Virus record (IMG/VR): IMGVR_UViG_3300009159_000050
Coordinates: 1 to 64,000 of that record
Direction: 5' to 3' (one strand)
Source of the DNA: a virus
DNA: 64,000 bases
This document shows positions 6,217-35,157 of the stretch, in pieces. The position numbers and the translations under genes were made by a program. The notes beneath the pieces are model-generated. The model saw only the letters and a list, made by a program, of their open reading frames with translations. It made no database searches and was not told the origin of the DNA. Numbering within the stretch: the stretch's first letter is position 1; every line of letters begins with the position of its first letter.

Positions 6217-6616
6217 ACTTTCTTGTTCCCAGAATTTTTCTCTACCCATATTGTCTGTTTCTATCATAGGGGTTGATTCTGTTTTGCATTGGCAGTTCTC
6301 ACATACCGTTTCTGAAAAAATCTTTGTAGAGAGGTTTGCCCAAGCTGGTTCATTTACCTCAACCCAGTTTTCAAAGTTTTCTAATATACCCATGTTTCTA
6401 TTATACACGAAATCTGAAAATTTTTGTAAAAACCAAAATAGCAAAAATCTGAATATTTTCTAGATGTGTATGATACATATAATAAAAAAATAAATAAAAA
6501 AATAATAGTGAGCACACCATGGGAGTGCCTGCATTGTAACTAGTACCAGTGCCATCTTTGTAATGGTGAGGCATAGCCACCCCCTACCGTATTTGATCAG
6601 TAGGGGAGTGCCATGT

Positions 6617-6793
6617 CTAAAAGGTATCCCCCTGCATGTATCCGTCAATACATAATAGATCGCATGTAATTTTTACACGTTGGTTAGGGTGTAGCGTTGA
6701 TTGAAATACCTCAATGAAATCGTATACCTCTTGCTTAGTCATGAGGTTGATGTTCTTAGTATTGCCAGACATTGTTGTTAGTGTTACTTTCAT
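6617..6793 (-). CDS. 58-aa hypothetical protein, paralog of 9045-9239
   Basis: MKVTLTTMSGNTKNINL...VKITCDLLCIDGYMQG; AAGGA RBS. Confidence 0.6.
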   Translation of the reverse strand: MKVTLTTMSGNTKNINLMTKQEVYDFIEVFQSTLHPNQRVKITCDLLCIDGYMQGDTF

Positions 6794-6922
6794 TTAATTT
6801 CCTTTGTTAGTGCATGAGCATTGGTTAATTGTAATTGTGTTACCCTGACGGATAGCGGTGGCGAGTGTGTCACACTCTATGCAGATGAATATAGAACCTA
6901 ATTCGTCCATGATGTTACCCAT
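6794..6922 (-). CDS. 42-aa Cys-rich peptide
   Basis: MGNIMDELGSIFICIECDTLA...QCSC; GGGAG RBS. Confidence 0.45.
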   Translation of the reverse strand: MGNIMDELGSIFICIECDTLATAIRQGNTITINQCSCTNKGN

Positions 6923-6924
6923 TC

Positions 6925-7107
6925 TTAGATCTCCCTAACGGAAGTCTCTAGGACTATCCAACCATGAGAGACTTTCTCATCAAGGTAATCGTTAATAGAT
7001 TCCTCAGACTGGAATAATCCACCTAGGTTAGTAGATGAGTAATTTCCTTTAGGAAATTCTCCGCTCCATGATAGAACGTATTGTTTAGTAGTAGTTAATG
7101 TAGTCAT
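6925..7107 (-). CDS. hypothetical protein, paralog of 7670-7855
   Basis: near-identical protein and shared RBS context AAGAAAGGTGGTC. Confidence 0.7.
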   Translation of the reverse strand: MTTLTTTKQYVLSWSGEFPKGNYSSTNLGGLFQSEESINDYLDEKVSHGWIVLETSVREI

Positions 7108-7232
7108 TTGATGACCACCTTTCTTTTAATGTGATAGACCTTGTGTCTATCGCTTTTCTTGACCTAGGTTATTTGCCTATCTTATTTGATAGGGCTCACT
7201 AGGATTTGTTATTTAATTTTTTTGATACTGTA

Positions 7233-7261
7233 AGTATAGCACAAAAATGTCAAAAAGTCAA
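7233..7261 (-). promoter_or_regulatory. leftward SigA promoter
   Basis: TTGACT-17-TATACT with extended TG. Confidence 0.7.
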
Positions 7262-7292
7262 GTTTAGACACGGACAAATTGGACATTTTCTG

Positions 7293-7308
7293 TGTGATCT
7301 CCGTCACA
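7293..7308. promoter_or_regulatory. CRP/GlxR site
   Basis: TGTGA-tctccg-TCACA. Confidence 0.7.
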
Positions 7309-7325
7309 TTTTGGCCCGAGCAAAA

Positions 7326-7464
7326 ATGACCAGTCTTGGGCTTACCTGCTTATGACCAGTCTTAGGTTCCCCCGCTCATGACTGGTCTTAGGCTCCCCAG
7401 CTCATGACCAGTCTTGTGCATATGCGCCTATGACCATTCTGGGTGCATGCGCTCATGACCAGTC
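7326..7464. repeat. six-copy ATGACCAGTC array, 26-bp period
   Basis: copies at 7326, 7352, 7378 (ATGACTGGTC), 7404, 7430 (ATGACCATTC), 7455. Confidence 0.85.
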
Positions 7465-7487
7465 AAAATACCTCGGGCCCCAAAAAG

Positions 7488-7551
7488 TTATCCACATGAT
7501 GTAGATCACATCTTAAATCACGCTCAAGTTATCCACATGACCTACATCACA
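7488..7551 (+). promoter_or_regulatory. two DnaA boxes each fused to a CRP-like site
   Basis: TTATCCACA at 7488 and 7529, each running into CATGA-N6-TCACA. Confidence 0.6.
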
Positions 7552-7591
7552 TTTCAAAATGTCCGTTTTGTCATAGTTACTGGCTAGTAGA

Positions 7592-7613
7592 TGTCAGACC
7601 CCTCTGCTATAAT
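7592..7613 (+). promoter_or_regulatory. RecA-NDp/PafBC-type promoter
   Basis: TGTCAG-N10-TATAAT. Confidence 0.7.
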
Positions 7614-7669
7614 ACTTACATACCAAAAAACAAGAGGTAAAGAAATCCTCTAAAGAAAGGTGGTCTCAA

Positions 7670-7855
7670 ATGACTACACTAGTTACTACTAAACAATTCG
7701 TTCTATCATGGACGGGTCTCCATAACCTTAGCGGTTATACATCTTCTAACTTAGGTGGGTTGTTCTCAGATGAACAATCTATAAATGAATACCTTGATCA
7801 AAAGGTAAGCGAAGGATGGACAATCATCCTTGTATCCGTAAAGGAGATAAACTAA
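7670..7855 (+). CDS. hypothetical protein, paralog of 6925-7107
   Basis: MTTLVTTKQFVLSW...NLGGLF...INEYLDQKVSEGW. Confidence 0.7.
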   Translation: MTTLVTTKQFVLSWTGLHNLSGYTSSNLGGLFSDEQSINEYLDQKVSEGWTIILVSVKEIN

Positions 7856-8019
7856 TGAATGCTATTTATACACTTAAATCTATCTGCGGAAAGAATACTT
7901 TCTATGTAGATCCATATGATGTAAATTTTAATCCTAATGGTGCTACTTGTTGCGATAATTGCAAATCTATTTTAATCTGCCGTCAGGCATGGGACTTTCT
8001 CTATAAGGGGGTAAAGTAA
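7855..8019 (+). CDS. Cys-rich hypothetical protein
   Basis: TAATG overlap, AAGGAG RBS, CCDNC. Confidence 0.55.
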   Translation: MNAIYTLKSICGKNTFYVDPYDVNFNPNGATCCDNCKSILICRQAWDFLYKGVK

Positions 8020-8192
8020 TGAGCATTGAACTACAAGATACACTTTCTATCTGCCGTCAAATTCGTAACAATGATCGTGATAGTGGAACACACTATCTGC
8101 TAGGTTATCTATGGGCTAACACTTCAGATAAAGAAAAAGAAAGAATCTATAAACTTTTCAAAAAAGATTTTGACGAAATGGAGAATAAATAA
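8019..8192 (+). CDS. 57-aa hypothetical protein
   Basis: TAATG overlap; MSIELQDTLSIC...YLLGYLWA. Confidence 0.5.
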   Translation: MSIELQDTLSICRQIRNNDRDSGTHYLLGYLWANTSDKEKERIYKLFKKDFDEMENK

Positions 8193-8193
8193 A

Positions 8194-8295
8194 ATGGAAA
8201 AAGATATTTTCGGATTTGATAAAGCAATTAACCTTGATCATCTTAATGATGAGCAAATAAAAACTTTAGAAGAAATATTTAAAGACTACAAATAA
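8194..8295 (+). CDS. 33-aa peptide, paralog of 11792-11887
   Basis: MEKDIFGFDKAINLDHL vs MEKDLFGFEKAIQLNHL. Confidence 0.6.
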   Translation: MEKDIFGFDKAINLDHLNDEQIKTLEEIFKDYK

Positions 8296-8337
8296 ATAAA
8301 AACAAAATTTCGCAGAAATAAAAAGCTGCGTTTTTTT

Positions 8338-8499
8338 GGGTCGGGCCCCAAATGACCAGTCATAGGCGCATAGACCCATGATCAGTCATTTACGTACGTG
8401 TGATCTAATTCACATTTACGGAATGTCCGTTTTATCCCAGTTTATGGTGATAATCAACTTTACATAACATGAGCAAATGTCAGACCCCTATGCTATAAT
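8338..8499 (+). promoter_or_regulatory. regulatory cassette
   Basis: TCGGGCCCC, ATGACCAGTCAT (8352) and ATGATCAGTCAT (8378), CRP site 8399-8414, TGTCC box, TGTCAG-N10-TATAAT 8478-8499. Confidence 0.7.
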
Positions 8500-8532
8500 T
8501 CTAGGTATAAACAAAAAGAAAGGAAGTTAAAA

Positions 8533-8709
8533 ATGACTTCATTAAAAATAAAATGCATAGAGCATAAGCCTATGAAATCTGCTATCTCACAAATTGGAGA
8601 TGAGCAATTTACATTCTGCCAAGAATGTGAAAATAACATTGAGCGTTGGTATAACGATACTGACCCTGAGCGTCTTGCTATGTGGACTGACTGGAAAGTC
8701 AGCCCATAG
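8533..8709 (+). CDS. 58-aa hypothetical protein
   Basis: GAAAGGA RBS; FCQECENNIERWY. Confidence 0.55.
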   Translation: MTSLKIKCIEHKPMKSAISQIGDEQFTFCQECENNIERWYNDTDPERLAMWTDWKVSP

Positions 8710-8783
8710 TGACCAAGATCACATTCCAAATGTCCTAAATGTCCGTTTTTGGATTTGATTTTGTCAGTCCAATCTGCTAAAAT
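8708..8783 (+). promoter_or_regulatory. regulatory cassette
   Basis: AGTGA-N6-TCACA, TGTCC-N4-TGTCC, TTGATT-17-TAAAAT with TGTCAG-N10 at 8762. Confidence 0.65.
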
Positions 8784-8821
8784 AGTTATATAACAAAAAA
8801 AAGAAAAGAAGGTGACAACCA

Positions 8822-9043
8822 ATGTCAGCACAAATATACACACCATCAGCCCTATTAGAGGGAAAATACTATCGCTCAATTTCTCGCAAGATTGACGGAA
8901 TTATTCAGGAAGCAGAAATTGCTCCAGAAATTTGGTACGGAGAAAACGATACTGCTTATCGTGTTCGTGTTCGCCCTACCTATAACGGAACAATTCTTCA
9001 CGAAGATTTTTGGGCAGTCGTAGCAGTAAGAAAGGAAAACTAA
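8822..9043 (+). CDS. hypothetical protein
   Basis: AAGGTG RBS downstream of promoter. Confidence 0.6.
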   Translation: MSAQIYTPSALLEGKYYRSISRKIDGIIQEAEIAPEIWYGENDTAYRVRVRPTYNGTILHEDFWAVVAVRKEN

Positions 9044-9044
9044 T

Positions 9045-9239
9045 ATGTACAAACTCAAACTAGAAACTTTCAGCGGAGAAGTTAAAACAATTTCACTTCC
9101 GTCAAAAGGTGCAGTTGCACAATTCATCAACACTTACCCAACACAATTACCAGTTGGCGTATCCGTAAAAGTCGCTTGCGACACCCTTGGAATTACTGGC
9201 ACACTTCGTGGCAGTTTAACACTAGCAAAATCAAACTAA
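9045..9239 (+). CDS. hypothetical protein, paralog of 6617-6793
   Basis: KLKLETFSGEVKTISL...VKVACDTLGITG. Confidence 0.6.
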   Translation: MYKLKLETFSGEVKTISLPSKGAVAQFINTYPTQLPVGVSVKVACDTLGITGTLRGSLTLAKSN

Positions 9240-9256
9240 GAATAGGAAATAAAATA

Positions 9257-9463
9257 ATGACAAAAATATATCACTCTCTACAATTCGTAACTGAATTAGA
9301 CGAAACACATCCAATCTCTCAGCAACTTCTTGCACTACCTACAATAGATCAGGTCGCTATGCTTGAAGCCATGCTAAAAGAATTGCTTGCTCCACGCATT
9401 CAGTCAACACTTGATGAACTCAACGAGAACAATCACTTCGCAGTATTAAAGGTGGCAGAATAA
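9257..9463 (+). CDS. hypothetical protein
   Basis: ATG 9257 after AGGA. Confidence 0.55.
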   Translation: MTKIYHSLQFVTELDETHPISQQLLALPTIDQVAMLEAMLKELLAPRIQSTLDELNENNHFAVLKVAE

Positions 9464-9623
9464 TGAAAACTTGTTTAATAGTTAATTGTGAATCAACTGC
9501 ACTTGTATATTCTGGAATTGACGCATTCATGCTAGGTGGAATCCCTACTGAAACATATTGCTACGATTGCGCTAATGCATACAATCAAATTTCTGCACAT
9601 GTAGAAAAGTTGGTGCAACTATA

Positions 9624-9806
9624 ATGATGACTAGAAAAGACTATGTAGAAACTGCAAAAATTCTAAATGGATTTCTTGACTATATGGACCCTCACGTTTT
9701 TCAAGATTTAGTTTTTGAATTTAGCGAATGGTTTCTTTCTGACAATCCAAGATTTCATGAAGGTAAATTTTCTGAGGCTTGCTATAAAGTGGAGGTAAGT
9801 ACATGA
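9624..9806 (+). CDS. small phage protein (MTRKDY...DNPRF family)
   Basis: MTRKDYVETAKIL...DNPRFHEGKFSEAC. Confidence 0.6.
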   Translation: MMTRKDYVETAKILNGFLDYMDPHVFQDLVFEFSEWFLSDNPRFHEGKFSEACYKVEVST

Positions 9807-9933
9807 GTAGAATTTTAACAACGCTTGTGCAGCTAACTTTATTTCTTGGAGTGCTTGCTTGTTTTCGTTTAATGTGGCAAGATTTAAAAAATGATCTTGC
9901 TGAAATCAAAAACGATTTGCGAAAATAAATAAA

Positions 9934-9961
9934 AAATCCTGAGCACGATTTAAAACTGCTC
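9934..9961 (+). ncRNA. 3'-UTR H-type pseudoknot motif, copy A
   Basis: AAATC-CTGAGCAC-GATTT-AAAAC-TGCTC. Confidence 0.6.
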
Positions 9962-9974
9962 AACATTCAAAAAT

Positions 9975-10112
9975 GGGGCCCGACCCCCACGGCGTGTCGT
10001 CCACAGGTTATCCACAGGCTTTACGTTGTGATATTACTCACACCCAAATTTTGTCATATTTTGAGATTAAGTGCCTTTGAGAGTTGCTCATGTCAGCCCC
10101 ATAGTGTAGGAT
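9975..10112 (+). promoter_or_regulatory. regulatory cassette
   Basis: GGGGCCCGACC, DnaA boxes 9997 (imperfect) and 10008, CRP 10027-10042, TTGCTC-17-TAGGAT with TGTCAG-N10 at 10091. Confidence 0.65.
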
Positions 10113-10519
10113 ATTTATATCAAGTTAATTAAGAAAGAAGGAACCCCCTATGAACGAATGCAAAGTATGTTTTGCTCAGCGTATGAGTATCTCTGCAATA
10201 TCTATCAAGATCAACGAACTATGCGAGCCACACTATCGTGACTGGCAAGATGAAAAGAATATGGGTGAGTACTTTGGGTAATATGATGGAAGCCTTATGC
10301 GTTGCATGTAATGAAGATTTGCATGTAGATGGATTTTATTGTTGGTCATGTGGAATTGACACCTACTACTCAGACATGTTAGAATCAGACCTCACCCTAG
10401 ATTGGACAGAATAATATGACCCCCTATGACGACTACTATGAAACTGATATGCCTACTGCCGTGGGTTGCTACTGCAAAATAAACTATGTGTGCTCAGAAT
10501 GTAAAGGAAACTATAACTA

Positions 10520-10732
10520 ATGGAATATGAATATCTAATTACCTGCGCCTATGACGGAAACGCTCCGCATTGGAAGCAACGCTATGAAAACGAATTTGGT
10601 GCATGGGAAAACTTTTTCCTATTTACTGATTGGGGAATGGCTGATGAATACTCCACAGTTAATCTCTACACGCCCACAGGCAAGTGTTACACAAGAAACT
10701 TTTATCGTAGCGGAATGGTGGCAACAAAATGA
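10520..10732 (+). CDS. hypothetical protein
   Basis: AAAGGA RBS, in operon of small ORFs. Confidence 0.55.
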   Translation: MEYEYLITCAYDGNAPHWKQRYENEFGAWENFFLFTDWGMADEYSTVNLYTPTGKCYTRNFYRSGMVATK

Positions 10733-10876
10733 TAAAGATTGAAGCAGAAGTAATTACATGGAAGCCTAATGATAAAAATTCTTTCATTGACAATATGACT
10801 CAAGATGAGTTAGCAATATTTGAAGCAGACATACAAGACGCTATTGACGGCGTAATAGAAGATTGGAAATAATATA

Positions 10877-11182
10877 ATGGGATCAGTAACCGCACTAGGA
10901 ATTAAAGATACAGTACTTGATTTGGAAACTCAGATTCTTTATCATCTCAAGGGTAATCACTATCCTCCAGTACCTGCAGAAATGGTCGCACCATGCATTG
11001 AAGCCATTGACGCGTACTATGATGAAGATTGGGATAGAATGATTGACATGCCTATGGTTGGTAGTTTTCAGATTCTCTATAAGGGAAGCAAGCAAGCGCC
11101 TGCATGGGCTATCGTAGAACAACACCACCTATCATGGTTTATTGAGCCAGTAGCATACTCTGATGAGGAGGAGGAATCCTAA
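10877..11182 (+). CDS. hypothetical protein
   Basis: HLKGNHYPPVP...AIVEQHHL motif; acidic tail. Confidence 0.6.
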   Translation: MGSVTALGIKDTVLDLETQILYHLKGNHYPPVPAEMVAPCIEAIDAYYDEDWDRMIDMPMVGSFQILYKGSKQAPAWAIVEQHHLSWFIEPVAYSDEEEES

Positions 11183-11248
11183 TGGCAATACTATTGACTT
11201 CAGTCACAGTTATATTTGTAGTAAAGATGATTTCACAGGGCAGATAAA

Positions 11249-11482
11249 ATGAGTGCTACAATAAATGGCATGGAACTAATAAAAGCTGATGTGCTAACTG
11301 CAGATGCAATTGAGATTGGTGATCTAATCTCTTTTGATGATGATATCGTTGAAGTAATTGCTATTGATGTTGATTCTACTGGCGATGTATATAGCATTCA
11401 AGTTAGCAACGACTTTGGTGAAACACAAACAGTTGACTTTGATTTTGATGAAGAAGTTGACTGGTACGTTTATATAGACTAA
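11249..11482 (+). CDS. small acidic beta-barrel-like protein
   Basis: ADAIEIGDLI pattern. Confidence 0.5.
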   Translation: MSATINGMELIKADVLTADAIEIGDLISFDDDIVEVIAIDVDSTGDVYSIQVSNDFGETQTVDFDFDEEVDWYVYID

Positions 11483-11485
11483 AGT

Positions 11486-11555
11486 GGGGCCCGAGGCCCC
11501 TGTGAGCTATATCACATTTACGTAGGTTGATATTTTTTTCTATATATGATAGGAT
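11486..11555 (+). promoter_or_regulatory. regulatory cassette
   Basis: GGGGCCCGAGG, CRP 11501-11516, TTGATA-17-TAGGAT. Confidence 0.65.
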
Positions 11556-11583
11556 TAGAATAATCCAAACGAAAGGTCAACTA

Positions 11584-11790
11584 ATGAAAATTTATGAAGT
11601 TACTTGTATTCACTATGAAATTTGTGGCTCTACTGAAACTTTTAATGAATCAGAATATGAAATCTATGGTGATGATTTCACCTGTGCTGAATGTTTCAAT
11701 CAACTTGAAATGTTTTCTCATGGCTGGCGTGATATTGCTTCAGATCACATGATGACTCGCATGGCTGATGCGGAGATGGGAGATTTGTAA
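11584..11790 (+). CDS. Cys-containing hypothetical protein
   Basis: GAAAGGT RBS, ATG 11584. Confidence 0.55.
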   Translation: MKIYEVTCIHYEICGSTETFNESEYEIYGDDFTCAECFNQLEMFSHGWRDIASDHMMTRMADAEMGDL

Positions 11791-11791
11791 A

Positions 11792-11887
11792 ATGGAAAAA
11801 GATTTATTTGGTTTTGAAAAAGCAATTCAACTTAACCACTTAACAAAAGAACAAATTGATGAATTGTTAAAAATGCTTGAAATATAA
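11792..11887 (+). CDS. 31-aa peptide, paralog of 8194-8295
   Basis: sequence similarity; both are the last gene before a GGCCC box. Confidence 0.6.
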   Translation: MEKDLFGFEKAIQLNHLTKEQIDELLKMLEI

Positions 11888-11889
11888 GA

Positions 11890-11957
11890 GGCCGAGGCCC
11901 CATGTGACTTAGCTCACATTTAAGAGATTTGATATTTTTCCCCATATCTGGTAAGAT
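11890..11957 (+). promoter_or_regulatory. regulatory cassette
   Basis: GGCCGAGGCCCC, CRP 11903-11918, TTGATA-17-TAAGAT, leaderless ATG 11964. Confidence 0.65.
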
Positions 11958-11963
11958 TATTAC

Positions 11964-12110
11964 ATGAGCCAGAAAAAGACCCCTGAAGAATTACGTATCC
12001 TTATGGAATTACGTAGATCTAATGCTGCCTCAGCTATCCCCAACAAAAAGAAATATGACAGAAAGAAATGTCAGTCGTACCTGCTACAATTAAAGAAAGA
12101 AAGCGAGTAA
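11964..12110 (+). CDS. 48-aa basic peptide
   Basis: leaderless; ELRRSNAASAIPNKKKYDRK. Confidence 0.5.
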   Translation: MSQKKTPEELRILMELRRSNAASAIPNKKKYDRKKCQSYLLQLKKESE

Positions 12111-12115
12111 CCCCC

Positions 12116-12838
12116 ATGACCAAATTACTTAGATCAAAAGATCGCAAAGTCGCTAACCTAGTTACAACTAATGGAAAACAAGCAAGCATGGCTAATACTT
12201 TTGGCCTACCTGCAGGCAAGGCGTACTCATGCCCTGGCGCTACTAGTGTGTGCGAGAGTGTATGCTATGCAGGCAAACTAGAAAAGGTATTCCCTAGTGT
12301 AAAGAAAAACCTATTGCACAACTGGGCATTGCTCAAGGACGCAGACTTAGATACTATGCAAACCTTAATCTCAGAGATGATTGAAGAGTTTAAGACAGAA
12401 TGCGTTAAGCGTAATGCACCTATGCTATTTCGTATCCACTGGGACGGCGATTTCTTTAATGATCAGTATACACAGGCATGGAAGAATGTCATCCTTAACA
12501 ATACAGACATTCAATTCTGGGTATACACACGTGTTAATTCTGCCGCAGTAATGCTAAAGGATATTGCTAATCTATCTTTATACTATTCTACAGATAGTGA
12601 GAATAAGTCTATTGGCCTTACCCTGAAAAAAGATCATGGCGTACGTCTTGCTTACCTTGCTAAGAATTTTGCAATTGGTCAGGCAGACATGAAAGAGATG
12701 ATTGGTCGCCCTGGTGCTAAGTGTCCAGAGAATCTCAAGGCTATTCCCCTTATCTCTCAAAAGGGCTCCGCTTGCGTATCCTGCTCATTGTGCGTATACT
12801 CTAAGAGCGACATAGTATTCTCTGCAACAAAAAAATAA
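12116..12838 (+). CDS. GP88 family protein (Fe-S/radical-SAM-like)
   Basis: FGLPAG..SCPGATSVCESVCYA, FRIHWDGDF, C-terminal CxxCxxC. Confidence 0.7.
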   Translation: MTKLLRSKDRKVANLVTTNGKQASMANTFGLPAGKAYSCPGATSVCESVCYAGKLEKVFPSVKKNLLHNWALLKDADLDTMQTLISEMIEEFKTECVKRNAPMLFRIHWDGDFFNDQYTQAWKNVILNNTDIQFWVYTRVNSAAVMLKDIANLSLYYSTDSENKSIGLTLKKDHGVRLAYLAKNFAIGQADMKEMIGRPGAKCPENLKAIPLISQKGSACVSCSLCVYSKSDIVFSATKK

Positions 12839-13017
12839 AGGAGATAAATGGACATATATGTAGTCTTATCTTTCATAGGGCTATTATTGTTCCTCATGAC
12901 AAAAAAATAATGTGACCTAAATCACAGTCCAAATAGTGAGATTTTTAGGAAATGGATTTGATATTTCTTAGATTTTTTGCTACACTTAATATAGTACCAA
13001 CTACAAAGGAGAAACAA

Positions 13018-13185
13018 ATGACGGTATCAACAGCAACATACAAGGTGGGCGACCTCTACACTTCACAGAAGTCAAAGGTAACAGGAACAATCTTGGAAAT
13101 CTCACCAACCGCAAATGACACAGTTCGTGTTAAGTTAGATGTAAATGGCATGACACGCTGGACAACATGGAAGGCTAGTTCATAA
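13018..13185 (+). CDS. small SH3-like hypothetical protein
   Basis: AAGGAG RBS; promoter TTGATA-17-TACACT at 12958 with CRP 12911. Confidence 0.55.
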   Translation: MTVSTATYKVGDLYTSQKSKVTGTILEISPTANDTVRVKLDVNGMTRWTTWKASS

Positions 13186-13199
13186 CTAGTTAGACAGTC

Positions 13200-13226
13200 A
13201 TTCCTGAGCATGAATTAAAAAGGCTC
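13200..13226 (+). ncRNA. pseudoknot motif, copy B
   Basis: ATTC-CTGAGCAT-GAAT-TAAAAA-GGCTC. Confidence 0.55.
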
Positions 13227-13289
13227 AACTTAATGTCAGTCCCACCTACTATAATATAAATAACCCACCAAAGAAAAGAGAAAATAAAA

Positions 13290-13715
13290 ATGGCAACAAG
13301 AAGCAAAGCAATCTCAGTAAAGATCGCAACACCAAAGGTAATCAAGGCACTAGAAGCATCACTTGCTAAACTAGAAGCAGACTACGCATCACAAGAAGCA
13401 AATGAAGCAAAGTATCAGAAGGCGTATGAGAAGTGGAAGAAAGACCTTATTGACTATGCAGTAGCAAATATCAAAAAGGCAGAAAACTTCCGTACTAACT
13501 ATCGCTCATGGTCAAACAATCTCAACATTGATTTTGATTTAGCGGTATCAGAAAAGGATCTACCAAAAGAGCCTACTAAGGATTTTGAGACACTTCATCA
13601 CAGTAACTATCGTGAGCAGAAGCAAGAGATGGAAAACGCAATTCGTATTCTCAAGATGACAGATGAGGAAGTAGTTTCCGCATCAACTTATCAAGCGGTT
13701 GCTCGTTATCTCTAA
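13290..13715 (+). CDS. hypothetical coiled-coil protein
   Basis: downstream of TGTCAG-N10-TATAAT (13234). Confidence 0.65.
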   Translation: MATRSKAISVKIATPKVIKALEASLAKLEADYASQEANEAKYQKAYEKWKKDLIDYAVANIKKAENFRTNYRSWSNNLNIDFDLAVSEKDLPKEPTKDFETLHHSNYREQKQEMENAIRILKMTDEEVVSASTYQAVARYL

Positions 13716-13750
13716 CTAACTTAGGGGGCAGTTAAAGTCCTGAACCCTAA

Positions 13751-13777
13751 CGACCTGAGTAAGTCGCAAAACTGCTC
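13751..13777 (+). ncRNA. pseudoknot motif, copy C
   Basis: CGAC-CTGAGTAA-GTCG-CAAAAC-TGCTC. Confidence 0.6.
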
Positions 13778-13851
13778 CCCGCAAGGGTCTTTGACAAATG
13801 TCAGTGGCCAGTAGTATACTTAAACTAACCAACAAACAGAAAGAGGCCCCC

Positions 13852-14265
13852 ATGGACCAGACAGTAACAGTAGTAAATGCAACAGAAGACTTTCTTCGTG
13901 ATTCCCTAGCAAAAGCAACTCTTCGTGTTGCACAACTAGAGGAGCAGATTCAGAAAGTAACTCAGCGATCATATGTTGATTCTGCTAACAAAAACCATAT
14001 GATTGACGCAATGAAAGAATGGACCCTTAGCGAATTAGAAAACCTTTCGCTTGCACAAGAACATGCAGAAGCAATTGCAGAAATTATGGGATTTGAACTA
14101 ACAACAGAATTTGAGGTTGAAGTTACAGTTACATATGCAATTACAGTTAATGCAGTCAATGAAGAAGAAGCGCAGAACTTAATTCATGATATTGATTTTG
14201 ATTCAGTATCAGAGCCCCAAGGCGTAACTTATTTGTCATCCAGTGTTGACAGAATAGATATTTAG
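13852..14265 (+). CDS. hypothetical protein
   Basis: GAGG RBS; promoter TTGACA/TGTCAG-N10-TATACT 13791-13820. Confidence 0.6.
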   Translation: MDQTVTVVNATEDFLRDSLAKATLRVAQLEEQIQKVTQRSYVDSANKNHMIDAMKEWTLSELENLSLAQEHAEAIAEIMGFELTTEFEVEVTVTYAITVNAVNEEEAQNLIHDIDFDSVSEPQGVTYLSSSVDRIDI

Positions 14266-14279
14266 TAGGGGGCTACTAA

Positions 14280-14308
14280 TAGATCTAAGCATATCTATAA
14301 ACTGCTTA
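14280..14308 (+). ncRNA. pseudoknot motif, copy D
   Basis: TAGAT-CTAAGCAT-ATCTA-TAAAC-TGCTTA (compensatory changes in both stems). Confidence 0.6.
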
Positions 14309-14477
14309 TTCAGCTCCCGCAAAATTTGGGGCTCGGGCCCCATGTGACCAATATCACACGTGTCTTTACGAGACATTAAAAAAATGTCCGATTTGCCCCA
14401 TATTTAACTAGCCTGCCTTGCATTTGTCAGTCTATCCTGATATACTTAAATCTCAACAACAACAAGGAGAAAAACTC

Positions 14478-15494
14478 ATGGCACATGACCTAGAAATACA
14501 AAACGGAAAAACATCTTTTGCTTCTTTCCGTGAACCTGCATGGCATGGATTGGGTACCGTCTTCACTGAGGAAAAGACCACACTAGAAATGTTAGATCTT
14601 GCTAACCTTTCTAACTGGAACGTTCGTCTTGAAGATCTACCAACCCCTGCACACTTAACAAGCGACAAGGAATACCAATATGTCGTACGCACCAACCCCA
14701 CTGATAGCGCCCAGACTGATATTCTTGGTGTCGTTGGTGAACGCTATCACGTATTGCAGAATGAGGACCTATTCTCATTTGGTGATAACATCCTAGACGG
14801 CGGTGGCCGTTGGGAGACTGCTGGCTCAATCAAGGGTGGACGTGTTGTCTTTGGTGCCCTTGCACTAGAGCGTGAAACAATCCTAGACCCTAGTGGCGTT
14901 GCAGATAAGGTGAAGACCTATTTGCTCATCAACACATCACATGACGGCTCAATCGCAATTCAAGCAAGCATAACACCAGTTCGTGTTGTGTGCGCTAACA
15001 CTCTCAATCTTGCACTTAACACCACACGCAAGAAGAATGGTGTCAAGCAATCATTCAAGATTCGTCACACTCAGACTGCCAATGGTAAGGTGCAAATTGC
15101 ACGTGAGACTCTTGGCATGGCTAATAAGTACATGGACGAATTTGATCTCATGGCTAAGGCTATGATTGAGAAGGAAGTCAGTGCTAAGACTTTCTACGAT
15201 ATCATTCTTGCTGCATATCCTAAGCCAGAAAAAGATGCTAAGGGTGCCGTAAAGAAGTGGGAGAATAAAGTTGATATCATCAACGATATTTACACTGGCG
15301 AATTTAATGGCATGATTGCTGGTAATGCATGGGGTGCATTTAATGCACTTACTGAGCGCCTTGATTGGTACCGCACATCTCGCGGTGGTAACAATGAAAG
15401 CATGCTTGCAAGCGCAAGCGGATTTGACCCTGCAATCAACGCAGAGAAAAATCGTTTGCTAAAGGTTGTACAAAATACCTTGCAACTAGTATAA
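14478..15494 (+). CDS. DUF932/DUF945 (TIGR03299) phage/plasmid-like protein
   Basis: MAHDLE...REPAWHGLG...WETAGSIKGG...TSHDGS...TPVRVVCANTL...IRHT. Confidence 0.85.
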   Translation: MAHDLEIQNGKTSFASFREPAWHGLGTVFTEEKTTLEMLDLANLSNWNVRLEDLPTPAHLTSDKEYQYVVRTNPTDSAQTDILGVVGERYHVLQNEDLFSFGDNILDGGGRWETAGSIKGGRVVFGALALERETILDPSGVADKVKTYLLINTSHDGSIAIQASITPVRVVCANTLNLALNTTRKKNGVKQSFKIRHTQTANGKVQIARETLGMANKYMDEFDLMAKAMIEKEVSAKTFYDIILAAYPKPEKDAKGAVKKWENKVDIINDIYTGEFNGMIAGNAWGAFNALTERLDWYRTSRGGNNESMLASASGFDPAINAEKNRLLKVVQNTLQLV

Positions 15495-15501
15495 TAAAAT
15501 A

Positions 15502-15527
15502 ATCCTGAGCATGATATAAAACTGCTC
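15502..15527 (+). ncRNA. pseudoknot motif, copy E
   Basis: ATC-CTGAGCAT-GAT-ATAAAAC-TGCTC, 4 nt before tRNA-Asp. Confidence 0.55.
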
Positions 15528-15531
15528 GCAA

Positions 15532-15605
15532 GATCTCTTAGCTCAATTGGTTAGAGCGCTACCCTGTCACGGTAGAGGTTGCGAGTTCAAGTCTCGTAGG
15601 GATCG
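15532..15605 (+). tRNA. tRNA-Asp(GUC)
   Basis: cloverleaf; anticodon arm CTACC-CTGTCAC-GGTAG; GTTCAAGT T-loop; G73. Confidence 0.9.
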
Positions 15606-15732
15606 CAAGCGTAAATGGGGCCCCGAGGCAAAATGGTACAAAACGGACATTTAAGAAGCTAAGATAAATACTCACGGATTTTTTTATTACGAAGGGCTTG
15701 CTTTTTCCCCAGTTTTCCTGTAGAATAAATAC

Positions 15733-15894
15733 ATGAACACTACACATAAACCATACACAATACACGAACTCGTAGAAGAAATCTATGAGGACAACTTCTC
15801 GCACTTTGATTTCATGGAAAACATGAATGGTGGGGATTGCGATTGTAATCTTCATATGACTATGAATACTATCTTAAAGTATTGGGGAGAGTAA
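15733..15894 (+). CDS. hypothetical protein
   Basis: leaderless after TAGAAT 15721. Confidence 0.5.
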   Translation: MNTTHKPYTIHELVEEIYEDNFSHFDFMENMNGGDCDCNLHMTMNTILKYWGE

Positions 15895-16052
15895 TGCTAG
15901 GCTATACTAAAGAAGATTTAGATCAGATGACTAATGCTATTCAGTCTGCTATAACTACCGTGAATTCTGACGATGACCCTTGGCTACATTCAAGACTGTA
16001 TATGGCAAGCGAATTCTTACAAGGCCTATGGGCAGAAGGGTATTTTGACTAA
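15894..16052 (+). CDS. hypothetical protein
   Basis: TAATG overlaps at both ends; MLGYTKEDL...FLQGLWAEGYFD. Confidence 0.5.
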   Translation: MLGYTKEDLDQMTNAIQSAITTVNSDDDPWLHSRLYMASEFLQGLWAEGYFD

Positions 16053-16240
16053 TGTGGACTAAACATGAGTATCTTTGTACTAATTGTGATACCCTTTTTG
16101 AAATCACAACCAGCAATGACCTGGTGATTCAACCCAACTGTATCTGTGATCAGCCTCACATTATTAGGATAAACAGATATGATGTGACGCAACTCACAGA
16201 AGATCACCTTGACTCTATTGGCAAAGTTCACTACAATTAA
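16052..16240 (+). CDS. zinc-ribbon small protein
   Basis: HEYLCTNCD...PNCICD. Confidence 0.55.
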   Translation: MWTKHEYLCTNCDTLFEITTSNDLVIQPNCICDQPHIIRINRYDVTQLTEDHLDSIGKVHYN

Positions 16241-16243
16241 TAT

Positions 16244-16393
16244 ATGGACCTAAACACATTACGAGAGTACATAAAAATTCACATAATCTCATTGGAGCAA
16301 GACTTGGAATCAAACCCTGAATCTATACACGTAGTAGACCTCAATGGACAAATTGTGGCCTGTGAACATATACTAGGAGTAATCAATGAATAA
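16244..16393 (+). CDS. hypothetical protein
   Basis: leaderless after TTGACT-17-TACAAT. Confidence 0.5.
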   Translation: MDLNTLREYIKIHIISLEQDLESNPESIHVVDLNGQIVACEHILGVINE

Positions 16394-16658
16394 TCTATCA
16401 CTATCCCCTCGTCTACAAAAACTAGTAGACATGGGGGAATCAGGCACTGACATCCTACATGGGGAACTAAAAAACCTTATGTATGAAGCAGAAAAGAATA
16501 TGCTTGCTGCTCAGAACAATGAACCTTTGGCTGAGGATGAGTATGATGAGTCAGATGAGTATCATCATGGATACCTTGACGCTTTGGCAACGGTATACCA
16601 ACTAACTTACGAACTGGCATTTGCAATCTCAGATCGTGCTAAGTTGACAAACCAATAG
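16386..16658 (+). CDS. hypothetical protein
   Basis: GGAG RBS; GYLDAL motif. Confidence 0.6.
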   Translation: MNNLSLSPRLQKLVDMGESGTDILHGELKNLMYEAEKNMLAAQNNEPLAEDEYDESDEYHHGYLDALATVYQLTYELAFAISDRAKLTNQ

Positions 16659-16703
16659 CATTCCTGTAAAATTAATATAAACCACTACTAGAAAGAAAAC
16701 ATC

Positions 16704-17348
16704 ATGCCAAACTGGGTATATAACGGACTAACTGTAGAAGGCTCTGAGTCATCTGTCCTTAAGTTAAAAGAGCAGGTAGGTAAGCCTATCTCTGTGCCAG
16801 TCGTTGACTGGAAGACTAATGAACTAAAGATAGAGACCAACGATAGCCCTATCTTCTCATACTGGAACATCATAGCCCCTACTGACCTAGATGCCTATCC
16901 TAAACAAACTGATCATTCATTAGATAAGCCATATGAGGGTGATGACTGGTATTCTTGGAATAATCGTAACTGGGGAGTTAAATGGGATGCAAGCAATCCT
17001 TACATTGGTGGAGAGCAAGTCAATGGTGAGAACTATGTTATTCAGTATAACTTTGAATCCCCTTGGGGAATTCCAGATGAGGCTCTAATTAATCTATCAT
17101 CTCAGTACCCTGATTTACTATTTACTTTAGAGTATGAGGAAGAGACTGGCTGGGGTGGAGAGCATGAGTACCTTAGAGGTGAGCAACTTGAAGGTATGAG
17201 TTATAACTGGAAGTGCCCAGAGTGCGACTACCTCCATGCAGGCGATCCTGATGACTTATACATAGAGAAGCACGAAGAGTTGGTCTGCCCTACATGTCAG
17301 TGGCCTGTGCTAGAATTGATGAAAACACCAAAGGAAGAGGTAAAATGA
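16704..17348 (+). CDS. DUF1281/YubB ferredoxin-like (Api92-like) protein
   Basis: MPNW..N; WYSWNNRNWGVKWDA; FESPWGIP. Confidence 0.75.
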   Translation: MPNWVYNGLTVEGSESSVLKLKEQVGKPISVPVVDWKTNELKIETNDSPIFSYWNIIAPTDLDAYPKQTDHSLDKPYEGDDWYSWNNRNWGVKWDASNPYIGGEQVNGENYVIQYNFESPWGIPDEALINLSSQYPDLLFTLEYEEETGWGGEHEYLRGEQLEGMSYNWKCPECDYLHAGDPDDLYIEKHEELVCPTCQWPVLELMKTPKEEVK

Positions 17349-17647
17349 AAACGGCAGATAGAGATAAACTACACAAATGTCTAGAGATCTTACACACTAC
17401 AGAACTAGGCCTACCCATGGTATGGCTATGGACATGGAGTGCCATTGTAGATATACTAGATGACAAGACATATCATGCACAGGTCAACCTTGATACTGTA
17501 TGGAATAAACTCTGTGAGGATGTAGCCGCAGGCAAAGGCTTCTCTCTAGAGTATGGGGCAGAGCAGCACTGGGATGATGTAACAGACTGGATGCACGAGA
17601 ACGAATTCATTATAGAGCCAGACCAAGAAGAAGAGGAGCAAGACTAA
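17345..17647 (+). CDS. hypothetical protein
   Basis: GAGG RBS; internal promoter at 17295. Confidence 0.55.
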   Translation: MKTADRDKLHKCLEILHTTELGLPMVWLWTWSAIVDILDDKTYHAQVNLDTVWNKLCEDVAAGKGFSLEYGAEQHWDDVTDWMHENEFIIEPDQEEEEQD

Positions 17648-18033
17648 TGGGAGCACGTATTAATTATATATTCAAAGATGTAGAGGCTGCAGTAGGCGAG
17701 CCAACTTCCCATGTGGTTCTATATAGCCACTGGGGTGAGACAGAGTGGCAGCGGGACCTAGCACAGGCGCTGCTGCATGCTAAACCTAGGTGGAGTGACG
17801 CCAGTTACTTTACTCGTATGATTATCAGTTGGCTTATGCAAGACTCTGTATTCAGTGCGACAGGGTTTGGTATCTATGCTATTAATGATATTAACGAGGA
17901 CCTAGGAGATACGACGGTAGTGATTGATATCTCTAAAGAAACTATCATTGATAACCAGGGAAATGTACTTGACTGGCAATTGTTTATTGAAGCCTACCTA
18001 CCAGTTGCTTTGACTGAGCACGTAGGGGTATAA
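17647..18033 (+). CDS. hypothetical phage protein
   Basis: MGAR...LYSHWG...RWSDASYFTRMI. Confidence 0.6.
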   Translation: MGARINYIFKDVEAAVGEPTSHVVLYSHWGETEWQRDLAQALLHAKPRWSDASYFTRMIISWLMQDSVFSATGFGIYAINDINEDLGDTTVVIDISKETIIDNQGNVLDWQLFIEAYLPVALTEHVGV

Positions 18034-18047
18034 ATACACCCTACACT

Positions 18048-18092
18048 AGAGGTGGCGCAATTTGTGGTGGGTTGCGCCCCTCTCCTCTTTTT
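18048..18092 (+). terminator. intrinsic terminator
   Basis: GGCGCAA...TTGCGCC stem plus T-run. Confidence 0.5.
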
Positions 18093-18116
18093 GATATAAT
18101 GTAGATAAGGAGAGCC

Positions 18117-18326
18117 ATGAGAAAAAAACTAGTCACGAAGGAAGAAAAAGTAGCAATCCAATTATGCAATATCTTGGCAGACCTTCGCCTTGACCTTGAC
18201 ATGATTGGTACTTATCTAGTAAGACTATCACCTAATGTAATTTACAATCGCTTGATCATATTAACAGATTCAGCAGAGGCAGAAAAGGAAGGGCAACATC
18301 ATGACTACAACTACAGAACTCGCTAG
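18117..18326 (+). CDS. hypothetical protein
   Basis: AAGGAG RBS; TGATATAAT promoter. Confidence 0.55.
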   Translation: MRKKLVTKEEKVAIQLCNILADLRLDLDMIGTYLVRLSPNVIYNRLIILTDSAEAEKEGQHHDYNYRTR

Positions 18327-18561
18327 CAAATGTGATATCTTAAATGATATCTGGATCAACCATTCTGAGAATGAATGGTTTGAAGACTTCATTGAGATTA
18401 ACGATTTGGGTTTGCCTATGGCATATTTTATTTGCAACGGTATAGTAGAGGCAACCCCTCTTGCAATAGAAATCATAGATGTAACATTCGCTGATCTATT
18501 AGAACTTTTAGAGATTGAGGATACTGGTTTCAAACTCTTGAGTGATATTGTAAAAAGCTGA
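18301..18561 (+). CDS. hypothetical protein, paralog of 34858-35157
   Basis: FEDFIEINDLGLPMAY vs FKDFIEYNDIGLPIAF. Confidence 0.65.
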   Translation: MTTTTELASKCDILNDIWINHSENEWFEDFIEINDLGLPMAYFICNGIVEATPLAIEIIDVTFADLLELLEIEDTGFKLLSDIVKS

Positions 18562-21545: not shown

Positions 21546-22448
21546 ATGAAAGATGCAATTATTATTCATTCCCCAGAGTATGCGAACTGGGTCTTTGACC
21601 CTAAGCATCCAACGCAGGGGCGTAGATTTATGCTGGGGCATGAGCAGGTAATCCTTAACGGAAAAGACCGCAACTTAAGCATTGAAGAGCTTCTTCCAGA
21701 GGTTCCACACAGTGATGACCTATTGATATGCCACGATCCAATTTATATCCACGATGTAACTGTAAAAGGTTTATCAAATGAATGGTATGGCCAACGCCAT
21801 GATCTAGGAGACCTTGCAAAGTTATTTGTAGGTGGAACTCTTACTGCCCTTAATGCGCTACTTGAGGCAAAGACTAAGTTAGCCATTCACCTTCCAGGAG
21901 CTAAGCACCATGCCATGCGAGACCACTCAAGCGGTTTCTGCGTATTCGGTGATTTCGCTATCGCTGCTACTAAAGCAACACTGCTTGGTAAAAAAGTTGC
22001 AGTCTTTGATTGCGATGCCCATCATGGTGATGGCACTGAAGCGCTAACAAAATCTAATCCAAATATTTTGACATTTTCTGTACACCAATATGGAATCTTT
22101 CCAGGTACAGGATTGAACTCAGATTTAGATAAGAAAGCTTTTAACTTTCCTCTTGCCTCTGGAACTGATGATGAAGGATTAACTGATGCGGTTGAATCAT
22201 TTCTTAATGTCTGCCTTGATTTTAAGCCAGACTTAATCTTTATTGCTTGCGGTGCTGATGCACTAGCAGATGACCCACTTTCTGGATTAAACTACACTGT
22301 GGGTGGTTATGAAATGGCTATGCGTAGTATCCGAATGGTTTACCCAGACACACCTATACTGTTTGGAGGCGCTGGAGGCTATCTGCCAGACGACCAGACT
22401 CCACACCTGTGGGGCAAAGCATCTCTGGCTTTAGTCAAACCAATGTGA
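21546..22448 (+). CDS. histone deacetylase family (HDAC/AcuC-like) Zn-dependent deacetylase
   Basis: GAKHHA, SGFCVFGD, DCDAHHGDGT, FPGTG, GADALADDPLS, GGY. Confidence 0.9.
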   Translation: MKDAIIIHSPEYANWVFDPKHPTQGRRFMLGHEQVILNGKDRNLSIEELLPEVPHSDDLLICHDPIYIHDVTVKGLSNEWYGQRHDLGDLAKLFVGGTLTALNALLEAKTKLAIHLPGAKHHAMRDHSSGFCVFGDFAIAATKATLLGKKVAVFDCDAHHGDGTEALTKSNPNILTFSVHQYGIFPGTGLNSDLDKKAFNFPLASGTDDEGLTDAVESFLNVCLDFKPDLIFIACGADALADDPLSGLNYTVGGYEMAMRSIRMVYPDTPILFGGAGGYLPDDQTPHLWGKASLALVKPM

Positions 22449-25016: not shown

Positions 25017-25090
25017 GCGACAGTAGCTTAGTTGGTTAAAGCCCCAAACTCATAATTTGGTAATCGTAGGTTCAAGTCCTACCTGTCGCA
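25017..25090 (+). tRNA. tRNA with CAU anticodon (Met or Ile2)
   Basis: GCGACAG/CTGTCGC acceptor; CCAAA-CTCATAA-TTTGG. Confidence 0.85.
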
Positions 25091-25094
25091 CTCT

Positions 25095-25171
25095 GCACCA
25101 GTAGCCAAGTTGGTGAAGGCGTCAGTCTTATATACTGAAGATCGTAGGTTCAAGTCCTGCCTGGTGTACCA
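25095..25171 (+). tRNA. tRNA-Ile(UAU)
   Basis: TCAGT-CTTATAT-ACTGA anticodon arm; encoded CCA. Confidence 0.8.
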
Positions 25172-25172
25172 A

Positions 25173-25244
25173 GTCTCTGTAACTCAGCGGAAGAGTAGTA
25201 CCCTTCTAAGGTAAAGGTCGTAGGTTCAAATCCTACCAGGGACG
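25173..25244 (+). tRNA. tRNA-Arg(UCU)
   Basis: TACC-CTTCTAA-GGTA; GTTCAAAT T-loop. Confidence 0.8.
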
Positions 25245-25287
25245 CAGAGAGATGCTATAATGTAATGAAAGTAAAAGGGGTGTTGCG

Positions 25288-26244
25288 TTGGCTAAAATTG
25301 TTTTTCTTGGAAACTTTGAAGTTTCATATAGCAGTGAGAATCATCACGCTAAAAGTTTAGAATCTCTTGGACATACCGTTGTAAAGTTGCAAGAAAAAAA
25401 GGCAAAGACCCATGTAATTCTTGATCAGGCACTTGACTCTGATCTATTTATTTGGGTTCATACTCATGGCTGGGAAACAGTTGGCAAGATCACAATGGAC
25501 GATGTTCTGCTCAGACTAAAGAGTGCTGGAATACCAACAATGACATACCACCTTGACCTATGGTTTGGTCTTGAAAGACAAAAGGATCTTGAACAAGATA
25601 ACTTTTATAAAACCATTGGTCACTTCTTTACAGTAGATAAGCTAATGGCTGATTGGTTTAATGAAAATACAGAGGTCAAAGGACATTTCGTTCCTGCAGG
25701 GGTATACGATAAGGAATGCTACATTCACCCAGATTATGACACACAAAACTTTAAGTATGATGTTATTTTTGTTGGCAGCAAAGGATATCATCATGAGCAT
25801 AAGTATCGTCCAGAATTAATTGATTTCTTAAGAAAGACATACGGAAAAAGATTTCTACATGTTGGTGGAGATGGTGATACTGGAACTGTTCGTGGTGATG
25901 AATTAAATAAGATCTATGCACAAAGCAAAGTAGCTGTAGGAGATAGCCTTAACATTAACTTTAACTATCCTTACTATACTAGTGATAGGTTGTTTGAAAG
26001 TACTGGTCGTGGTGGTTTTACCATATACCCAGAAATTAAAGGACTAGATGAATACTTTATGCCTGATGAAGTAGTATTTTACAATCATGGAAATTTAGAT
26101 GACCTAAAAAACAAAATAGATCATTACCTTGAGAATTCTTTAGTAAGAGAAAGAATTAGATTAAATGGACACAATCGCACAAAGAAAGAGCACACCTATG
26201 TGCATCGTTGGGAAACTATTATGAATGAGTTAGGAATAAAATGA
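25288..26244 (+). CDS. CgeB-like glycosyltransferase (GT-B)
   Basis: DVIFVGS...YYTSDRLFESTGRGGF...HTYVHRW. Confidence 0.8.
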   Translation: MAKIVFLGNFEVSYSSENHHAKSLESLGHTVVKLQEKKAKTHVILDQALDSDLFIWVHTHGWETVGKITMDDVLLRLKSAGIPTMTYHLDLWFGLERQKDLEQDNFYKTIGHFFTVDKLMADWFNENTEVKGHFVPAGVYDKECYIHPDYDTQNFKYDVIFVGSKGYHHEHKYRPELIDFLRKTYGKRFLHVGGDGDTGTVRGDELNKIYAQSKVAVGDSLNINFNYPYYTSDRLFESTGRGGFTIYPEIKGLDEYFMPDEVVFYNHGNLDDLKNKIDHYLENSLVRERIRLNGHNRTKKEHTYVHRWETIMNELGIK

Positions 26245-34857: not shown

Positions 34858-35157
34858 TTAATTATCTTTCTTATCTACATAATGAAATAAAGCTTCTAAT
34901 GATTCCCAGCCAATATCTTCTTTTACTTCTAAGGCTGCAAGAAAAATGTCCCATGTTTCATAAACATATTGTTTTGCTAAGACTGTTGGCTCAACTAATT
35001 CATTGTCAACTAAAAATGCAATTGGCAACCCAATGTCATTGTACTCAATAAAATCTTTAAAATATTTATCAAGCTTATAGTCCATCCATAGTTCCCCAAG
35101 GATGGCACACATTGATTCAAAGCTAGTTACGTCTTCTCCGTTGTTAGAGATTTCCAC
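34858..35157 (-). CDS. hypothetical protein, paralog of 18301-18561
   Basis: sequence similarity. Confidence 0.6.
   Translation of the reverse strand: MEISNNGEDVTSFESMCAILGELWMDYKLDKYFKDFIEYNDIGLPIAFLVDNELVEPTVLAKQYVYETWDIFLAALEVKEDIGWESLEALFHYVDKKDN

Follow-up and report, generated by a model that had tools for sequence, protein, structure and literature searches.

Promoter sites and genes at the locus

We analysed the first 64 kb (64,000 nucleotides, here called the window) of the IMG/VR virus record IMGVR_UViG_3300009159_000050, which is 89,966 bp long and 84% complete according to CheckV. Its plus strand carries, between positions 7592 and 17316, nine copies of a promoter-like element in which the hexamer TGTCAG (the box) is followed by exactly ten nucleotides and a -10 hexamer of the form TANNNT. 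In 100 shuffles of the window that preserved the dinucleotides the pattern occurred 0.86 times on average (standard deviation 0.90, maximum 4), and nine or more copies were reached in 0 out of 100. The full record contains nine forward and no reverse matches, and a reversed control pattern is absent from both strands. If position 5 of the box was allowed to be either purine (TGTCRG), the window gave no extra site. Among spacings of six to 15 nucleotides only ten is enriched in this phage (nine sites; eight, nine and 11 gave none), and 9 out of the 19 TGTCAG copies on the plus strand stand in this context. The initial annotation had listed the nine sites and had placed each before a ribosome binding site and a gene. 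All its coordinates proved exact, and downstream of every site a Shine-Dalgarno-like purine run and an ATG follow, the ATG 25 to 56 nucleotides after the -10.

The sites, numbered P1 to P9, belong to a block of about 35 mostly small genes on the plus strand (7592-18033), which is also served by some canonical sigma-70-like promoters. P1 (7592-7613) has the -10 hexamer TATAAT with a TGc extension and no -35 (2 out of 6 matching bases); it would drive gene 7670-7855, 56 nucleotides further on, and the next two small genes. P2 (8478-8499; TATAAT, TGc, no -35 with 3/6) is positioned to drive 8533-8709 at a distance of 33 nucleotides, and P3 (8762-8783; TAAAAT) to drive 8822-9043, 38 nucleotides away, with a run of small genes behind it. 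P4 (10091-10112; TAGGAT) stands 37 nucleotides before gene 10150-10281. The GP88-family gene 12116-12838 would be driven by P5 (12069-12090; TACAAT, TGc, no -35) from the shortest distance, 25 nucleotides, and gene 13290-13715, which encodes 141 amino acids of no assigned family, by P6 (13234-13255; TATAAT, neither TGn nor a -35, 1/6) from 34 nucleotides. P7 (13799-13820; TATACT) and P8 (14425-14446; TATACT, TGa) each leave 31 nucleotides to the ATG, of gene 13852-14265 and of the DUF932 gene 14478-15494, respectively. P9 (17295-17316; TAGAAT, TGc, no -35) lies within the 3' end of the open reading frame (ORF) 16704-17348, 28 nucleotides before 17345-17647, and would drive this gene together with 17647-18033.

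The extended -10 (TGn) is present in 6 out of the 9 sites. Four sites had been credited with a normal -35, which overstates the case: P7 has a perfect TTGACA at 18 nucleotides, the sole perfect one among the nine, and P3 has TTGATT at 17 nucleotides (4/6). P4 (TTGCTC at 17 nucleotides, 3/6) and P8 (TTGCAT, one base before the box) retain the TTG only. The remaining five score one to three out of six and are thus without a recognizable -35; this agrees with the annotation for P1, P2, P5 and P6 and adds P9 to them. A generic sigma-70 scan detects just 2 out of the 9 sites.

Outside the block the promoters are of the plain extended -10 or -35/-10 kind and the box is absent; elsewhere in the genome TGnTATAAT promoters without a box were counted at 27 sites, on the strand of most genes. 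Because the rest of the genome uses promoters without it, the box appears to mark one regulon and not promoters generally. Judged only by gene size and layout, the block 7592-18033 probably comprises early genes.

Conservation in related phages

A relative of the DUF932 protein is encoded on 383 IMG/VR stretches, and 80 of these (1.31 Mb, DUF932 proteins 85-97% identical) were kept as related loci. The gene strand of these loci holds 603 matches of TGTCRG-N10-TANNNT and the opposite strand 54, compared to 5 and 4 for the reversed control. The box reads TGTCAG in 584 cases and TGTCGG in 19, and on the forward strand a spacing of ten nucleotides was found 584 times, of nine 8 times and of 11 only 3 times. 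If all hexamers located ten nucleotides before a good -10 are counted, TGTCAG ranks first with 354 occurrences and the runner-up has 52.

We also looked at the 130 nucleotides upstream of orthologues of the nine downstream genes, a check that does not presuppose the motif. It is present before 71/80 orthologues of the DUF932 gene behind P8, 54/60 for P7, 44/50 for P3, 42/67 for the GP88 gene behind P5, 34/74 for P6, 30/42 for P2, 5/5 for P4, 3/14 for P9 and 1/3 for the remaining gene, and it lies anywhere between 20 and 64 nucleotides before the start codon. Fifteen longer records of the lineage, eight of them at least 90% complete, all possess the motif (15/15; 138 sites vs 20 for the reversed control), most sites being clustered in one block and largely on a single strand. 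Near-complete genomes of the lineage appear to have 5 to 16 such promoters each. The motif is a conserved functional element, and promoters of this class occur only within a single block of about 10 kb with small genes, in a large lineage of freshwater actinophages.

A consensus was derived from 469 unique sites of the relatives, which have about 37-38% guanine plus cytosine (GC) and are related by descent. With W for A or T, S for G or C and positions numbered relative to the box, it reads A(-3, 80%) W W TGTCAG W(+6, 80%) S(+7, 86%) S(+8, 85%) and, further downstream, T G n TAnAAT. The TGn extension is found in 61% of the sites. As regards the -35, 303 sites (65%) match at three or fewer out of six positions and 16% at five or more; a score of at least four is reached by 166 sites vs 72 in a displaced control. 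The phasing, exact to one base, and a G/C pair conserved in a genome of 37% GC suggest that a protein is in contact with the box as well as with the polymerase. The rigidity of the spacing (584 vs 8 and 3) would fit a factor docking on RNA polymerase. We regard the sites as real promoters of a distinct class with high confidence.

Likeness to PafBC promoters and to actinobacterial recA

The initial annotation had compared the sites with the RecA-NDp promoters activated by PafBC, and the geometry bears this out: it is identical to the Mycobacterium smegmatis consensus tGTCgg(N10)tA(N3)T obtained by chromatin immunoprecipitation sequencing, which has a -26 element at -23 to -28 and no -35 (PMC8635444). 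According to the same text the GTC triplet is read by the helix-turn-helix (HTH) of PafB, sigma-A domain 4 is held by the HTH of PafC, and actinobacterial promoters are frequently without a -35 (PMC8635444). Activation of PafBC is described for single-stranded DNA (ssDNA) of at least six nucleotides, gaps included (PMC11804915). In Actinomycetales this promoter type stands before recA and other damage genes (PMC5087735).

We compared the phage sites with recA promoters from metagenomes, searching for the box followed by an ATG and the codons of a conserved N-terminal motif of RecA; at least 120 stretches were obtained and 80 loci kept. As the search required the box, the loci give no frequency of such promoters among low-GC actinobacteria, and they are related by descent; the flanking positions were left free. 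Over 150 residues, the RecA of 59 loci reaches 77% identity or more with that of one locus, L131; in 14 loci it is 67-73% identical to the reference, five were too short to score and two were not recA. Among solved structures, the L131 RecA comes closest to the 4po1/1g18/1ubc group, with about 600 bits vs 483 for 2rec; the former are mycobacterial entries and the latter is that of Escherichia coli. The low-GC members of the 59 are L131 and L145 (44%) and L135 (47%), and about ten more have 52-55%.

In 13 actinobacterial loci of low or medium GC (83,744 bp) all 13 matches of the pattern lie before recA, and the control gave 0. The flanks of 50 unique host recA promoters (mean GC 64%) have A in 40% at -3 and in 62% at -2, W in 78% at +6, and S in 96% at +7 and 94% at +8.

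A separate group of five metagenomic loci with 42-45% GC (L118, L155, L158, L164 and L172) carries recA after TGTCAG-N10-TATATT, and in four of the five the box forms an inverted repeat, CTGACA-N6-TGTCAG. With the actinobacterial reference their RecA shares no more than 71-73% identity, and their assignment to a phylum is not clear-cut.

Two other assignments of the element were rejected. Read by eye as a sigma-54-type -24/-12 promoter, its register is off by one and GT replaces GG; actinobacteria are not known to possess sigma-54. A CRP-like half-site would be TGTGA, which TGTCAG differs from.

The phage and its probable host

The phage has a GC content of 37%. It is found in 18 DNA runs labelled as freshwater or lake, which contain 0.33-0.92 of the words of the stretch, and a megablast search against 50,697 phage records gave zero matches. 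Its DnaE-type polymerase is 55% identical to those of the Streptomyces phages BillNye, Circinus and Paradiddles (Stanwilliamsviridae), and near the polymerase gene the same set of primase, DnaE and UvsX-like recombinase genes is found as in these phages. A WhiB-family gene (35127-35414, minus strand, 42 bits) is a marker of an actinobacterial host. Among 14 control genomes, a match that reaches E ≤ 0.01 or exceeds the cut-off was obtained for Corynebacterium alone, and the phage records that match this WhiB are actinophages in 153 out of 153 cases (Streptomyces, Rhodococcus, Mycobacterium, Gordonia and Microbacterium). The presence of WhiB and the similarity of DnaE to its Streptomyces phage counterparts make an actinobacterium the very likely host, and not a Mycobacterium: an origin as a mycobacteriophage was ruled out by the GC content, the occurrence in lake metagenomes and the lack of a megablast match.

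Neither a tyrosine integrase nor a serine recombinase was found in the 90-kb record (84% complete), which leaves a wiring for prophage induction unsupported. Together with WhiB, the kinship of DnaE and the lake runs this suggests an apparently lytic phage of a freshwater actinobacterium. Complete members of the lineage measure about 105-112 kb.

A search of genomes with WhiB gave one lead to a host only, a 4-kb contig (L091) in a metagenome-assembled genome of 700 kb labelled Candidatus Saccharibacteria (G001), and it was rejected. Its WhiB is 80% identical to that of the phage and the sole WhiB of this genome, so that the contig is probably a mis-binned phage fragment and not part of a host. 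The genome is not enriched in the motif either (8 vs 6 in the control), and the 120 best WhiB homologues listed all look phage-borne.

Some further genes of the phage may be mentioned. A 174-amino-acid ORF (42487-43011, minus strand) weakly matches the Proteasome-subunit family with its N-terminal 48 residues (25 bits against a cut-off of 22.4), which is curious as the host phylum links PafBC to the Pup-proteasome locus. A protein of the histone-deacetylase family is encoded at 21546-22448 on the plus strand (Hist_deacetyl, 178 bits). A cluster of three transfer RNA (tRNA) genes (25017-25245) precedes an island of lower GC (25288-32809, 31-36%) with glycosyltransferases, three methyltransferase-type genes, an NAD-dependent epimerase/dehydratase and a weak match to a PIG-L-type deacetylase.

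The neighbouring control region

Upstream of P1, at 7290-7590, lies a hub that looks origin-like. It contains about six tandem repeats of 26 bp with the core ATGACCAGTC (7326-7464), which are flanked by TTTTGGCCCGAG and CTCGGGCCCCAAAA. Exact copies of TTATCCACA are located at 7488 and 7529, 41 bp apart, and a third at 10008; if up to one mismatch is allowed the sequence is not enriched (21 vs 22 expected). A second motif, AATGTCCG(T/A)TTT, occurs on the plus strand at 4421, 7558, 8422, 8738 and 14383 and on the minus strand at 15651. It sits 34-56 nucleotides 5' of 4 out of the 9 TGTCAG boxes, frequently follows (T)CACATT and differs from ATGTCAG by a single letter.

The first genes of the two divergent arms, 6925-7107 on the minus strand and 7670-7855 on the plus strand, are paralogues of 60 and 61 amino acids whose sequences match at the N terminus and further along. 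The leftward gene stands under a canonical TTGACT-17-TATACT promoter and the rightward one under P1; a strong leftward sigma-70-like promoter is located at 7233-7261. Within the TGTCAG block a tRNA-Asp gene (15532-15606) directly follows the DUF932 gene.

Contigs from four lake metatranscriptome runs span most of 7000-18500; starts, strand and expression are not readable from them and a carry-over of DNA is possible. Their depth is greatest at 12.8-15.8 kb, which is no measure of expression. In two RNA-library runs (X20 and X22) contigs connect position 9961 to position 15539, skipping 5,577 bases with 11 other letters in between; related phages in these lakes probably lack or replace the part of the block between the two positions.

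Possible readers of the element

Our judgement inclines, if only a little beyond an even chance, to an orthologue of PafBC in the host that reads the -26 element by sigma adaptation. The promoters consist of a housekeeping -10 (TANNNT, often with TGn) and a -26 element, A-W-W-TGTCAG-W-S-S, fixed exactly ten nucleotides upstream and at most sites standing in for a -35. The element would be read by the host orthologue of PafBC, a heterodimer of WYL-domain proteins, which when bound to ssDNA may insert itself between the DNA and domain 4 of sigma-A; through this 'sigma adaptation' the host RNA polymerase could initiate at the -26-element promoters. The gene block would in this way be tied to the ssDNA alarm of the host, which infection, phage replication or host DNA damage might trip. 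From the sequences we infer PafBC as the reader, ssDNA as the trigger and the early character of the block; the sites appear to be built like PafBC promoters, which is less than to claim membership in the PafBC regulon.

A further version of this proposal is a promoter class coupled to replication or entry and timed by the ssDNA sensor of the host. The ssDNA would come from the incoming genome or from the origin-like hub 5' of P1, and, being local, would activate PafBC beside the nine phage promoters. We consider this version rather unlikely.

That the phage is wired to the PafBC sensor of its host had been the central proposal of the initial annotation. The geometry, the actinobacterial host and the likeness to the flanks of recA promoters support it, and several observations weigh against it. 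Nine large cultured relatives, the Streptomyces and Rhodococcus phages BillNye, Paradiddles, Gilson, Blueeyedbeauty, Ankus, Mandalore, Grayson, Weasels2 and NiceHouse, do not have the motif (0/9; 10 matches vs 25 for the control). RecA-NDp promoters are described in Streptomyces and expected in Rhodococcus, the host genera of these phages. The use of the box thus seems to be a speciality of the lake lineage and not a general habit of actinophages, and a phage factor specific to the lineage would explain the restriction of the motif equally well. In addition, many sites could fire unaided by means of TGn (61%) or a -35 of at least 5/6 (16%), in which case the box might be a brake and not a switch. 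The phage sites prefer C at +7 and the host recA promoters G. As the search for recA loci itself demanded the box, it gives no share of low-GC actinobacteria whose recA carries one. Host promoters and phage sites alike are related by descent, and neither set consists of independent samples. A damage switch of the host would also be odd for the genes needed earliest, unless entry itself yields ssDNA.

A reader encoded by the phage is a doubtful alternative to PafBC. An activator of a novel family, or a sigma-remodelling pair like MotA and AsiA, would read TGTCAG at -26, and the block would be a middle class that follows an immediate-early product. The limitation of the motif to the lineage speaks for such a factor, dozens of small ORFs without a family offer candidates, and the canonical promoters in the block as well as the leftward one at 7233-7261 could make an early activator first. 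The position of the box and the missing -35 resemble the middle promoters of T4, a comparison also drawn in PMC8635444. We searched for genes of this kind and recognized none. WYL domains are absent from 16 out of 16 records (this one and the 15 longer relatives), which extends to the whole record what had been noticed for the window. HTH_PafC, MotCF and Sigma70_r2 were found in 0/8 records (this phage and seven near-complete relatives), AsiA in 0/8 above the cut-off, with a single 14.9-bit match inside a frame of 2,904 amino acids, and HTH_11 and Sigma70_r4 not in this record (0/1). Of four ORFs adjoining the control region (6460-7107) that were tested, each occurs in at most 46 out of the 80 relatives, the coverage of the loci being incomplete. 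A phage activator would moreover have to copy the core, the spacing and the flanks of recA promoters by chance. WhiB, the remaining candidate from the phage, is present in 8/8 of the records tested. WhiB-family proteins bind sigma-A domain 4, and from there the phage WhiB could guide the polymerase to the box. The nine cultured relatives, which were picked by or share the WhiB or DnaE match, are again without the motif, no WhiB protein is known to recognize a hexamer at -26, and the gene is distant and on the opposite strand, all of which makes this role extremely improbable.

Two explanations dispense with an activator. The box may be a spacer- or discriminator-like element that the sigma-A holoenzyme (or RbpA or CarD) favours, which would turn the sites into strong constitutive promoters; the extended -10 in 61% of the sites, the -35s of some and the frequent lack of a -35 in actinobacterial promoters (PMC8635444) would be compatible with this. 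A general preference of sigma-A is not expected to be restricted to one block and to recA, yet the other promoters of this phage are without a box, and the 13 low- and mid-GC loci have it only before recA (13/13, control 0). We hold this for improbable. Alternatively, TGTCAG could be an operator, similar to the L5 stoperators, at which a repressor of the phage silences the block later in infection. Such a repressor would suit an asymmetric site that lies within the promoter spacer and is co-oriented with transcription, and also the many sites that could fire unaided. It would have no need of a spacing to the -10 that is exact to one base (584 vs 8 and 3), six bases are short for a repressor site, and the likeness to recA promoters would be a coincidence; an operator therefore seems highly improbable to us.

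If the host PafBC does read the box, a virus would run part of its programme through the ssDNA alarm of its host, and sigma adaptation would operate in the streamlined low-GC actinobacteria that dominate in lakes. If the version coupled to replication or entry were true as well, a lytic phage would have made the host alarm its developmental clock, with no need of a transcription factor of its own, and it would be the first virus to use 'sigma adaptation'. A whole and very abundant lineage of lake phages appears to carry such promoters, and the motif could serve as a signature by which phages without a culture are assigned to hosts among the actinobacteria.

Comparison with known systems

To our knowledge PafBC promoters have been described solely from a DNA-damage regulon of the chromosome. 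In the literature searched we found no paper that links PafBC or RecA-NDp boxes to promoters of phages or to Nanopelagicales; Rafique et al. (2025; cited in PMC12848934) reportedly connect pafBC with mycobacteriophage resistance. The phage sites share with PafBC promoters (RecA-NDp, recA P1-type) the TGTC(R)G core with its GTC and the exact ten nucleotides to TANNNT, and with actinobacterial recA promoters the A-rich sequence before the box, W at +6 and S at +7 and +8. They differ in being located in a phage, as a cluster of nine before small genes of no assigned function and not before DNA-repair genes. In addition, the phage core nearly always has A at position 5 (584 vs 19 with G), +7 is C over G, and many sites (61%) have TGn as well. 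PafBC promoters usually have no -35; of the phage sites the majority has none and a subset possesses one.

The induction of prophages by the SOS system also couples phage genes to a DNA-damage signal of the host, as is proposed here. In the 90-kb record of the present phage no integrase or serine recombinase was found, and the coupling would consist in activation by PafBC and not in the loss of the LexA-type repression. The stoperators of mycobacteriophage L5 are short asymmetric repressor sites that occur in many copies and are co-oriented with transcription. The TGTCAG boxes are likewise short, asymmetric, multi-copy and co-oriented; the stoperators are not locked to a -10 with one-base precision and act as repressor sites.

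Middle promoters of T4 depend on a MotA box at -30 together with AsiA, a mechanism called 'sigma appropriation'. In both cases a class of phage genes has promoters with a -10 in which an activator box at a fixed short distance replaces the -35. The T4 factors are encoded by the phage, whereas no homologue of MotCF or, above the cut-off, of AsiA was found in 8/8 records here, and the box of the present phages equals a promoter element of the host.

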